NCBI GenBank assembly: GCA_024679065.1
Contig: JAGIQG010000016.1
Span: 50,406,001-50,470,000, forward strand
DNA length: 64,000 nucleotides
Source: Sphyrna mokarran
Taxonomy: Eukaryota
Reading direction: 5' to 3'
The notes beneath the pieces are model-generated. The model was not told the origin of the DNA. It saw only the letters and a program-made list of their open reading frames with translations, and did no database searches. The translations under genes and the position numbers were made by a program. Positions 5,974-63,972 of the stretch are shown in pieces. How positions within the stretch are numbered: the stretch's first letter is position 1; every line of letters begins with the position of its first letter.

Positions 5974-6284
5974 GGGTGGCATAGTGATTAGCACTGCTGC
6001 CTCACAGTGTCAGAGATCTGGTTTCAAATTCTAGCCATAGGTCACAGTCTGTGTGGAATTTGCATATTCTCTCTGTGTCTGTATTGGCTTCCTCCGGGTG
6101 CTCCAGTTCCTCCCAGGGTCCAAATATATGTGGGTTAGGTTAATTGGCTGTGGTAAATTGCCTCTTGGTGTCAAGGGGACTAAGCAGAGTAACTACATGA
6201 GGTTACGGGAATAGGGTGTGATTGTGGTTGGTGCGGGCTCGATAGGCTGAATGGCCTTCTTCAGCACTGTAGGGCTTCTACATG
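5974..6284 (+). mobile_element. HE1/V-type tRNA-derived SINE with CR1-like tail (tail A)
   Basis: tRNA-like head (gattagcactgctgcctcacag...ggtttcaaattc), central gtttcctccgggtgctccagtt-type block, tail ggctgaatggccttcttcagcactgtaggg. Confidence 0.85.
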
Positions 6285-7290: not shown

Positions 7291-8227
7291 TGCGACCAGA
7301 TCAGAAACTCCAGGGTATATCATGAAGTTAGACTTAACTATTTTAGATTTCAGCATTAGTGTGAGCACAAGGTGTTTCACTCCAGGTGTGATTCTATTGA
7401 TAAAGAAGCTTATATGAAAACGAACTTTATTTAACAATGATGTGGAGATGCTGGTGTTGAACTGGGGTGGAAACAGTAAGAAGTTTCACAATATCAGGTT
7501 AAAGTCCAACAGGTTTATTTGAAAATCATCAGCTTTTGGAGCACTGCTCCTTAATCAGGTGAATCACCTGATGAAGGAGCAGTGCTCCAAAAGCTCATGA
7601 CTCGAAAATAAACCTGTTAGATTTTAACCTGGTGTTCTGAGACTTCTTACTTTGTTTAACAATAATTTGACTATAACAAATTAGTGTAAGTTTTACCAAT
7701 TGAAATACTTAAACAAGAGATAATTCTTTACTGCCAGCTATCTCTATTAGTTTGAATTTAAGCAATATTCTTCATAGCTGTAAACTCCTCTTCAAATCAG
7801 TTAGCAAAAACACACAGGCTTACATGGTTTTTAACATTTCTGAAGAGAGATATCTATTTCCTAGTGAGTCCCAGACTTCAATCTCCAGATAGAGAGAGGG
7901 AGAAATGCTATTGCTTCCTGCAAATTCAGACAACTGCCTGCTTTTCTGTCTGTAAACCTAGCTTTGTCTAGTCATATGACTCAATTTCTTGTCATTCAAT
8001 CTAATTAAACCAATTGAAACTCTTGGGGAAAACCTAAAAAAATAACAAAACTGCATTAGGTCAGATTAAAACACCCCAATAATCAGAAAAAAGTTATTCT
8101 TTTACAGGCTCAGTATGTGGATTGCCAGTTGCAGACAAATTAGCAATGATCAGGCTTGAAGTTTAAATCATTTCCTTCACAAGAAACATGACACAAATAC
8201 ATTTCTTAAAAACACAATACCGTCACA
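7291..8227. mobile_element. Solo-LTR-like repeat, interrupted by the palindromic insertion at 7438-7650
   Basis: 7291-7437 aligns to the reverse complement of 17630-17779 (accagatcagaaactcc...atgaagttag...aaggtgtttcact); TG...CA-type ends; no clear TSD. Confidence 0.5.
7438..7650. mobile_element. Palindromic non-autonomous Penelope-type insertion with degenerate hammerhead motifs on both strands
   Basis: Inverted arms span 7475-7651, centred near 7563. CTGATGA-aGGAGC-agt-GCTCC-aAAAGCTC lies at 7568-7596. Flanking direct repeat actttatttaacaat (7424-7438) / actttgtttaacaat (7649-7663). Confidence 0.75.
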
Positions 8228-8980
8228 AATGTTTGCAATGTTCTTTCAGATATTTTATGAGTAAAGTATTTATTTGCAAAAAAATTGGTTTCAAAGGGAC
8301 ACTTTTATGTTTAAGCAGCCAAACAATTAATCATGGATTTTAAAAATTTGACTTAAAGCAATGGGAATTTCATCAAAATATAGAGAAGGCTTGAGTATAG
8401 GATATTTCAAAGTGTCAAAAGTATAACATTATGGAAAACAAAAATAATACAGTATGCAACTTTTTTGAGAAGTATATGTCAGATTTGCAAATTTTTGTGT
8501 CATACTTAGGAAAAACAGGAAAAAAACACAAGTATATCTTGTTCGTTTCTTTGGATTTTAGAGAGAGGCTTGGGACATTTATGCATCTATCAATTTATAA
8601 ATACAACTTGGTCTACCAAAAATACTTCCAATTGACCTCATGGTCACCCAAGAACAATCAGCCTTTAACTGATCTCACGATGCACTTATTATAGTAATTA
8701 GCTTTTCAAGGAACAGACTATCTTCCACACAAATCCAGGTTAAAGAATAATATTTGTTGTGTAACACAGTGCAATATTTCCATCTTTATTAATACCTTAT
8801 CTTCTGATTTACTGCAAATAAACCATGAAAGATCTATTGGTATATTTAAACTTTTTACATTTCTCGCATTAAAGTGACTGCCAATCTTTCAGCTTCCATC
8901 ATCAGCAGTAATTAAGTTCTACATGGCTTCAGATTATTGATGCTTTCAATTATTAAAAGCTATGGCCTTATAGGTGAGGT

Positions 8981-9280
8981 GGGGCAGTACAGTGGTACAG
9001 TGGTTAGCATTGCTGCTTCACAGCTCCAGCGATCTGGGTTCGATTCCTGGCTTGGGTCACTGTCTGTCTGAAGTCTGCGCATGCTCCCTGTGTCTGTGTG
9101 AGTTTCCTCTGGGTGCTCTGGTTTCCTTCCACATTCTAAAAGATGTGCTGCTTATGTGTATAGGCCACACTAAATTCTCCCTCAGTGTACCTGAACAGTG
9201 TGGTGGCCAGGGGATTTTCAAGTAACTTCATTACAGTGTTAATGTAAGCCTACTTGTGACACTAATAAATAAACTTAAAC
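8981..9280 (+). mobile_element. HE1/V-type SINE with alternative tail (tail B)
   Basis: Same head and core; tail ctaaattctccctcagtgtacc...gttaatgtaagcctacttgtgacactaataaataaact. Confidence 0.85.

Positions 9281-11317: not shown

Positions 11318-63972
<52,655 letters not shown>

Follow-up and report, generated by a model that had tools for sequence, protein, structure and literature searches.

Opposed 5' ends of a Penelope-like element in a shark genome: a dead head-to-head insertion, likely primed at both target nicks

Insertions of Penelope-like elements (PLEs) are known to combine an inverted truncated copy, a one-sided tail and a target duplication (PMC8557442, PMC3846280, PMC8969392). In the endonuclease-positive PLEs with inverted pseudo-LTRs (pLTRs), as portrayed in PMC8557442 and, for Pen2a_Av, in PMC3846280, an inverted 5'-truncated copy lies beside the main copy, a tail of 30-40 bp is found on one side only and the duplications measure 8-10 bp; the pLTR carries TATA and Inr-like motifs, and the protein a CX2-5CxxC linker and a CCHH endonuclease. 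How PLEs come to form tandem and inverted structures has been named as unexplained (PMC8557442). The family that we describe here from the shark Sphyrna mokarran resembles these elements in such features, but differs from them in that both arms comprise only the first 90-127 nt, with stubs of this kind forming a large class, and in that the 5' ends of the stubs cluster at one base and carry an extra G. The insert under study lies 7.4 kb into the stretch of 64,000 nucleotides that was analysed (the window, to which positions refer unless a locus is named). It has an inverted 5'-truncated copy, a one-sided tail and a duplication of the variable kind, and its head-to-head layout is already known for PLEs. 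In the open-access literature we found no paper that treats PLE palindromes of sharks or attributes inverted pLTRs to dual priming, nor, in the openly accessible portions of that literature, a description of a sharp 5'-end cluster with an extra G in PLE stubs.

Three further systems can be compared. The minimal hammerhead ribozymes of metazoan PLEs (PMC4209133) are, like those found here, of type I, with an extra base between positions 9 and 10.1, G10.1-C11.1, a palindromic 15.2-16.2 and a short stem I; they are located in the pLTR and occur as thousands of dispersed copies, some of them in opposite-strand pairs. The shark motifs differ in having a stem II of 5 bp and, in the 7.4-kb copy, broken cores. 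We came across no mention of sharks in the account of minimal hammerheads in PMC4209133. The anole Poseidon element PAc nicks and extends both strands in vitro, from two start sites flanking the tail, and accepts RNA that has not been cleaved (PMC11167929). The shark elements, as we read them, resemble PAc in having two internal RT start sites on either side of the tail and in that both strands are nicked and extended, cleavage being unnecessary for insertion. They differ in that the PAc ORF starts inside the hammerhead and the PAc start sites lie in the ORF, whereas both sites here lie at or before the start codon. No link between double extension and inverted insertions is drawn in the parts of PMC11167929 that deal with these reactions. 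Lastly, non-LTR retrozymes (bioRxiv 10.64898/2026.07.22.740005), which are present in the one chondrichthyan sampled in that work, share with the insert the absence of an ORF, a type-I hammerhead and a derivation from PLEs; they are described as head-to-tail tandem units with a hammerhead each, whereas the 7.4-kb insert is head-to-head and forms no tandem array.

The original prediction for this locus was a near-perfect inverted repeat of about 175 bp. The repeat is real, with two arms of 88 nt and a spacer of 1 nt (Table 1), but at 86% complementarity "near-perfect" is too strong a term. The predicted fold of the palindrome has an energy of -126.1 kcal/mol (z -15.7), and none of 200 shuffled sequences did as well. 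No ORF had been seen, and indeed stop-free stretches wholly inside 7424-7663 never exceed 32 codons in any frame.

Table 1. Coordinates of the insertion at 7.4 kb and of its surroundings
Feature	Position	Strand	Remarks
Left target-site duplication	7424..7438		7427-7436 unambiguous, ends common to element termini
One-sided 36-bp PLE tail	7439..7474	-	Last part of parent 5' UTR
Left (long) arm	7475..7562	-	PLE 5' UTR, decayed minimal hammerhead, core 7558-7552
Head-to-head junction	7561..7565		Putative 5-nt overlap of two cDNA ends stopping at +1
Right (short) arm	7564..7651	+	PLE 5' UTR, end at inner priming site
Decayed minimal type-I hammerhead	7564..7600	+	Sequence, family covariation, fold
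Right target-site duplication	7649..7663		One mismatch at 7654; 7649-7651 common to arm end
Host dispersed repeat split by insertion	7295..7812 (minimum extent)		71-73% identity, both sides

The insert is flanked by a direct repeat with 14 of 15 positions identical, previously taken for a 15-bp target duplication. We conclude that it is a true target duplication, since other copies of the host repeat carry the target once: this is the case in empty-site homologues at locus L166 and at 17.6 kb of the window, and at the empty site of L166 the two insertion flanks cover the same bases where they overlap. The exact length of 15 bp did not hold. Five of the 15 bases also match the element ends (7649-7651, 3 nt, in the right copy and 7437-7438, 2 nt, in the left one), so that the duplication measures 10-15 bp. 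The earlier layout had also left out of the insert the 36 bp that separate the left arm from the duplication on its side. This segment is part of the insert, is present on one side only, and elsewhere runs on into the start of the PLE ORF (loci L037, L042 and L046-L075, with a profile match over +1..+131). Here it ends at the start codon of the parent ORF, the AT at 7438-7437 being shared with the duplication. The host repeat, first described as LTR-like, is a dispersed repeat and 71-73% identical to 17771-17448 of the window and to locus L166. It was observed at 7295-8227 and 16947-17771 and is several hundred bases long, its second copy in the window starting with TG; old dispersed copies, 68-76% identical, were seen at loci L166, L176, L193, L221 and L126.

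A genome search with a 240-bp query gave 7,390 candidates in 2.77 Gb. Among the 40 candidates that were scored, the best other copies were 81-86% identical, and one 26-mer had 17,463 exact genomic matches. Among loci with an intact 36-nt motif, the arm is preceded by an ORF end and 3' UTR at L034, and followed by an ORF start at L037 and L042; extension from these loci led to the long copies. About 3 kb of loci L186-L190 could be aligned at 77-81%; all six long loci fetched contained the arm, and L186, L187, L188 and L190 had direct terminal repeats (pLTRs) containing both arm and hammerhead. As long copies contain the arm next to the ORF start, the arm corresponds to the hammerhead and 5' UTR of a 3-kb PLE. 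Whereas the long arm extends to the start codon, the short arm stops about 36 nt before it. At the 5' side of the long copies L186, L188, L190 and L191 we observed inverted pieces of ORF or pLTR; these pieces are the long form of the stub layout.

All genomic parent ORFs examined are broken. When nine genomic ORF fragments were compared with Pfam, one RT fragment matched RVT_1 (E 3.7e-5, below the cut-off) and none matched GIY-YIG. The RT fragment has 31 relatives, the best of which are shark proteins, 79% and 74% identical, with RVT_1 and PF26215. The relative P0004 aligns across the RT, a C-X4-C-X2-C linker and a GIY-YIG endonuclease with CCHH; the GIY-YIG CCHH motif could be read in P0004 and in translations of L186-L191, and Pfam gave a weak GIY-YIG match on P0001 (E 7.6e-4). 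The C-X4-C-X2-C zinc finger lies between RT and endonuclease in genomic copies and in P0001, P0002 and P0004. A CX2-5CxxC zinc finger defines the Neptune/Nematis type (PMC8557442), and by the definitions given there the parent, judged from its sequence motifs, is a 3-kb PLE of this type with RT and GIY-YIG. The PLE origin first proposed is thus upheld, the arm being part of the pLTRs of 3-kb RT and GIY-YIG elements; such elements sharing the arm were found, though with broken ORFs.

Hammerhead motifs are present in both arms where the original prediction placed them. In the right arm the core occupies 7568-7574, stem II 7576-7580/7584-7588 and the GAAA box 7589-7592; an AGCU stem III is present, and the cut site lies after 7596. 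This motif is damaged by the replacement of G12 by A at 7589 and by an A as the first stem-I base at 7597. In the left (mirror) motif G8 is replaced by U (7553) and G12 by A (7537), and stem I is broken. An intact CUGANGA / GAAA / UH core is therefore absent from both arms here and stem I is broken in both, in agreement with the earlier view that this copy is probably inactive. The longer stem I drawn previously makes use of junction bases and had to be given up; in the family, stem I is 4 bp long (7564-7567/7597-7600). No hammerhead was among the 17 matches that an Rfam scan of the palindrome gave with E no higher than 10, and none of the 17 reached the gathering score. The miRNA-type matches were rejected as hairpin artefacts.

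An intact core is kept in 28 of the 91 family arms that reach +1, and a 36-nt intact hammerhead motif has 15 exact matches genome-wide. We aligned the 28 intact-core arms with the two arms of the 7.4-kb copy (30 rows, 28 distinct), omitting the fifth stem II pair because of the alignment. In these rows, which are related and chosen for their intact core, 84.3% of the stem cells were paired, compared with 72.6% after shuffling (0/500) and 30-49% when the stems were slid; likewise, the 30 related rows contained 31 double changes in stems, compared with 11.1 in shuffles (0/500). Two pair-count measures of covariation were not above shuffles (144/500 and 373/500). On the evidence of this alignment, stems I and II covary across PLE subfamilies, as was anticipated for a minimal type-I hammerhead. 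In the predicted fold of an intact solo arm both stems form with a probability of at least 0.94. Folded singly, the arms of the 7.4-kb copy retain only stem II; for a transcript of the full palindrome the prediction is one hairpin, with zero probability for either hammerhead stem. A ribozyme dimer between the two arms was considered and rejected, as the hairpin dominates; moreover, the motifs lie on opposite strands, so that no such dimer can arise within one RNA. We also observed that the antisense of family positions +1..+9 (7556-7564 here, decayed) resembles a splice donor: these first nine bases of the hammerhead match, in antisense, the donor consensus. Intronic stubs could supply cryptic splice donors.

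The abundance and pairing of the arms were determined in an unselected census by profile search of 134 evenly spaced 10-kb tiles (1.34 Mb). It gave 122 profile matches in 88 groups, and none in the reversed control. When arms within 150 bp were grouped, 55 groups contained a single arm (a count that refers to that distance), 30 were head-to-head and three were same-direction, none with more than two units. Extrapolation to the whole genome gives about 180,000 insertions and about 60,000 close head-to-head pairs, among which the 7.4-kb element is an ordinary one; its value lies in the evidence that it offers on mechanism. A duplication score of at least 7 was obtained for 21 of the 30 pairs but for only 49 of 870 mismatched flank pairings, with lengths of 7-17 bp. 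Such variable target duplications support the target-primed insertion that had been proposed. A second head-to-head stub was seen in the window at 49356-49556, with a long and a short arm, one of them truncated inside the hammerhead, and a 13-bp duplication. Two same-direction arms of the family occur on the minus strand at 21371-21641; one of these begins at +1, and a G stands before it.

A motif-anchored sample of 50 loci, all from one contig end, supplied 19 extra pairs. Among the resulting 49 pairs, 39 join a long and a short arm, two are long plus long, three short plus short, and five include an end that could not be classed. Of the single arms found in the tiles, 28 were long, 24 short and 3 other, from which a quarter of the pairs would be expected to be long plus long, against the 2 of 49 observed (p 1e-4). 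The two arms share their subfamily class in 20 of the 24 pairs of this set that could be classified (shuffled mean 6.2); two of ten class-a pairs join differing sub-variants. Paired arms are 13% divergent, compared with 17% for unrelated arms of the same class, and no fewer than four subfamily classes are represented among the pairs. Beyond the cut site, the paired arms at loci L114:7006-7572 and L294:3946-4167 belong to different sub-variants, a hint that two RNAs served as source. At locus L165:3485-3623 we observed an inverted pair with non-overlapping arms (-3..+53 and +63..+131), resembling an inversion without duplication.

The 5' ends were analysed for 194 arms (two of 196 were dropped at locus edges), with an accuracy of a few bases. 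Taking as +1 the A six bases before the core, 45 of the 120 arms at risk ended at -4..+5. This is a rate of 0.0375 per nt, compared with 0.001-0.007 upstream of -45; 23 of the 194 arms ran past -295. CA occupies -1/+1 in 78 of 86 long copies, and TATAW lies at -38..-21 in 50 of 86 versus none of 86 at -18..-1. In the 49 arms without upstream continuation the base before +1 is C in 22, G in 21, A in four and T in two, and many of these 21 G could derive from the partner arm. A genome-wide +1 pattern was designed to exclude long copies as well as the commonest ends of partner arms. By hand counts of the 100 truncated copies listed out of 140, the base before +1 is G in 63, A in 19 and T in 18; one base further out, G accounts for 15 of 82 non-C bases among the matches listed, also counted by hand. 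At +4, used as a control, G was likewise frequent (16 of 30, the other 14 being A), and the difference from +1 reached only p 0.02. Reverse transcriptases add C opposite an RNA cap. From these positions we infer that the PLE RNA would start at +1 and be capped, the start and the cap both being putative. A search of sequencing runs with a long copy listed assembled contigs, which do not reveal a start site, and no RNA set. A similar TATA-Inr pair is found in a rotifer pLTR (PMC3846280). The Penelope promoter of D. virilis is internal and TATA-less (PMC2377424), so that short copies might still be transcribed.

Ends at the ribozyme cut site were few. About 8 of the 100 junctions read by eye, out of 221, start there, compared with 1-3 per neighbouring base, and 3 of the 8 are accounted for by microhomology. 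A bump of arm ends at +36..+38 is partly an artefact, as inserted bases of longer subfamilies are mapped to one coordinate. In the junction rows read by eye, many short internal deletions bounded by microhomology were also seen in the hammerhead region, which suggests template jumps or repair.

The insert at 7.4 kb is best regarded as a dead pair of opposed PLE 5' ends, likely the product of one event in which both nicks were primed. On this model, the parent RNA would start at +1, capped and with stem I at its very 5' end. The PLE protein would nick both strands 10-15 bp apart, and one cDNA would be primed at each of the two internal RT start sites. Synthesis of both cDNAs would continue to the 5' terminus of the RNA, which would be mostly uncleaved, and a C would be added opposite the cap; their 3' ends, complementary at 4 of 5 bases with the extra C, would then anneal, and repair would give the palindrome. 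Annealing of such run-off ends would yield the centre length of the 7.4-kb copy. The product would be devoid of the upstream promoter motif, with a hairpin hiding both ribozymes, and would likely not move again. The arm ends are read as priming sites because the anole PLE starts at two sites bounding its tail (PMC11167929). However, no difference in start site between the two strands was seen for the anole element (PMC11167929), a result that would not on its own predict the near-exclusive pairing of long with short arms.

A different origin, which we hold to be unlikely, is that cDNA made from a single nick folds back or switches strand and copies itself into the second arm; a variant of the same low probability is that antisense RNA primes itself, as proposed for head-to-head repeats in PMC3846280. 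The sharing of subfamily class by paired arms and their lower divergence would be expected from fold-back too, and weigh to that extent against two nicks; the arms of one pair (L229) are even identical over the hammerhead. Fold-back leaves unexplained, however, why the second arm of the long-plus-short pairs should stop at the second priming site, a site that single arms use as often as the first. The pairs at L114 and L294 combine different sub-variants, many centres show overlaps or foreign filler sequence of the sort that end joining typically leaves, and the extra G is what a capped template in sense orientation would give; all three speak against fold-back.

The original prediction envisaged instead a non-autonomous palindromic family akin to retrozymes, whose members would be transcribed whole and moved as units by the PLE protein. 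We now consider this quite improbable. The very high copy number seen with the 26-mer would suit such a unit, as would the internal promoters that PLEs can have (PMC2377424), and the 5-nt centre length of the 7.4-kb copy does recur in 12 of 30 loci selected by the query; in the 30 unselected pairs it was found in only three (both read by eye). Centres differ across these unselected pairs, the central base being G, C, A or T in one orientation, so that a fixed unit copied from a master element was not borne out there. The occurrence of pairs in at least four subfamily classes is also hard to reconcile with one such family, and copying of a palindromic RNA should truncate the far arm variably, yet the far arm ends at a fixed site, both outer ends of the stubs falling at the two priming sites of the parent. 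The predicted hairpin would moreover remove both hammerhead stems, same-direction groups are rare (3/88) and never exceed two units, and short copies lack the upstream TATA-like motif. The element is therefore most likely not a self-propagating retrozyme; a minor master element is possible among the roughly 10% of pairs with the shortest centre. That the insert is a DNA-transposon MITE with a chance likeness to hammerheads has almost no probability left: it is a short, abundant, ORF-less inverted repeat, but its duplications vary from 7 to 17 bp where a MITE would have them fixed, its ends are asymmetric, its centre is variable, its stems covary, and direct continuity with an RT-bearing PLE ORF refutes the idea. 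In annotation, palindromes of this kind should be entered under PLE rather than under MITEs or miRNA hairpins.

Returning to priming at both nicks, we are inclined to take the stubs as a genome-wide fossil record of PLE integration. One ribonucleoprotein with coordinated priming would use one nick per RT start site and copy a capped RNA whose first bases are hammerhead stem I, and the two cap-extended cDNA ends would be joined; the few ends at the cut site may record cleavage in vivo. The data suggest that the RNA begins with the hammerhead, which in most cases is copied without having been cut. If true, this reading would explain head-to-head PLE insertions with no need of an antisense template. 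Three quantitative predictions for the anole in vitro system follow from the pairing of long with short arms, the sharp peak of 5' ends and the extra G.

The window contains other features. Exons of a MYT1-family zinc-finger gene lie on the minus strand at 24437-63971, with finger motifs at no fewer than 12 places and a Pfam MYT1 match at 51666-52109 (E 2e-21). A direct repeat of 555 bp, 86% identical, occurs at 12317-12864 and 13577-14117, 1,260 bp apart. A dispersed repeat roughly 300 bp long is represented by copies with 70-80% identity at 5975-6273, 8980-9276, 38721-38898, 39503-39763, 42938-43236, 53539-53847 and 59113-59412; this is presumably a shark SINE.
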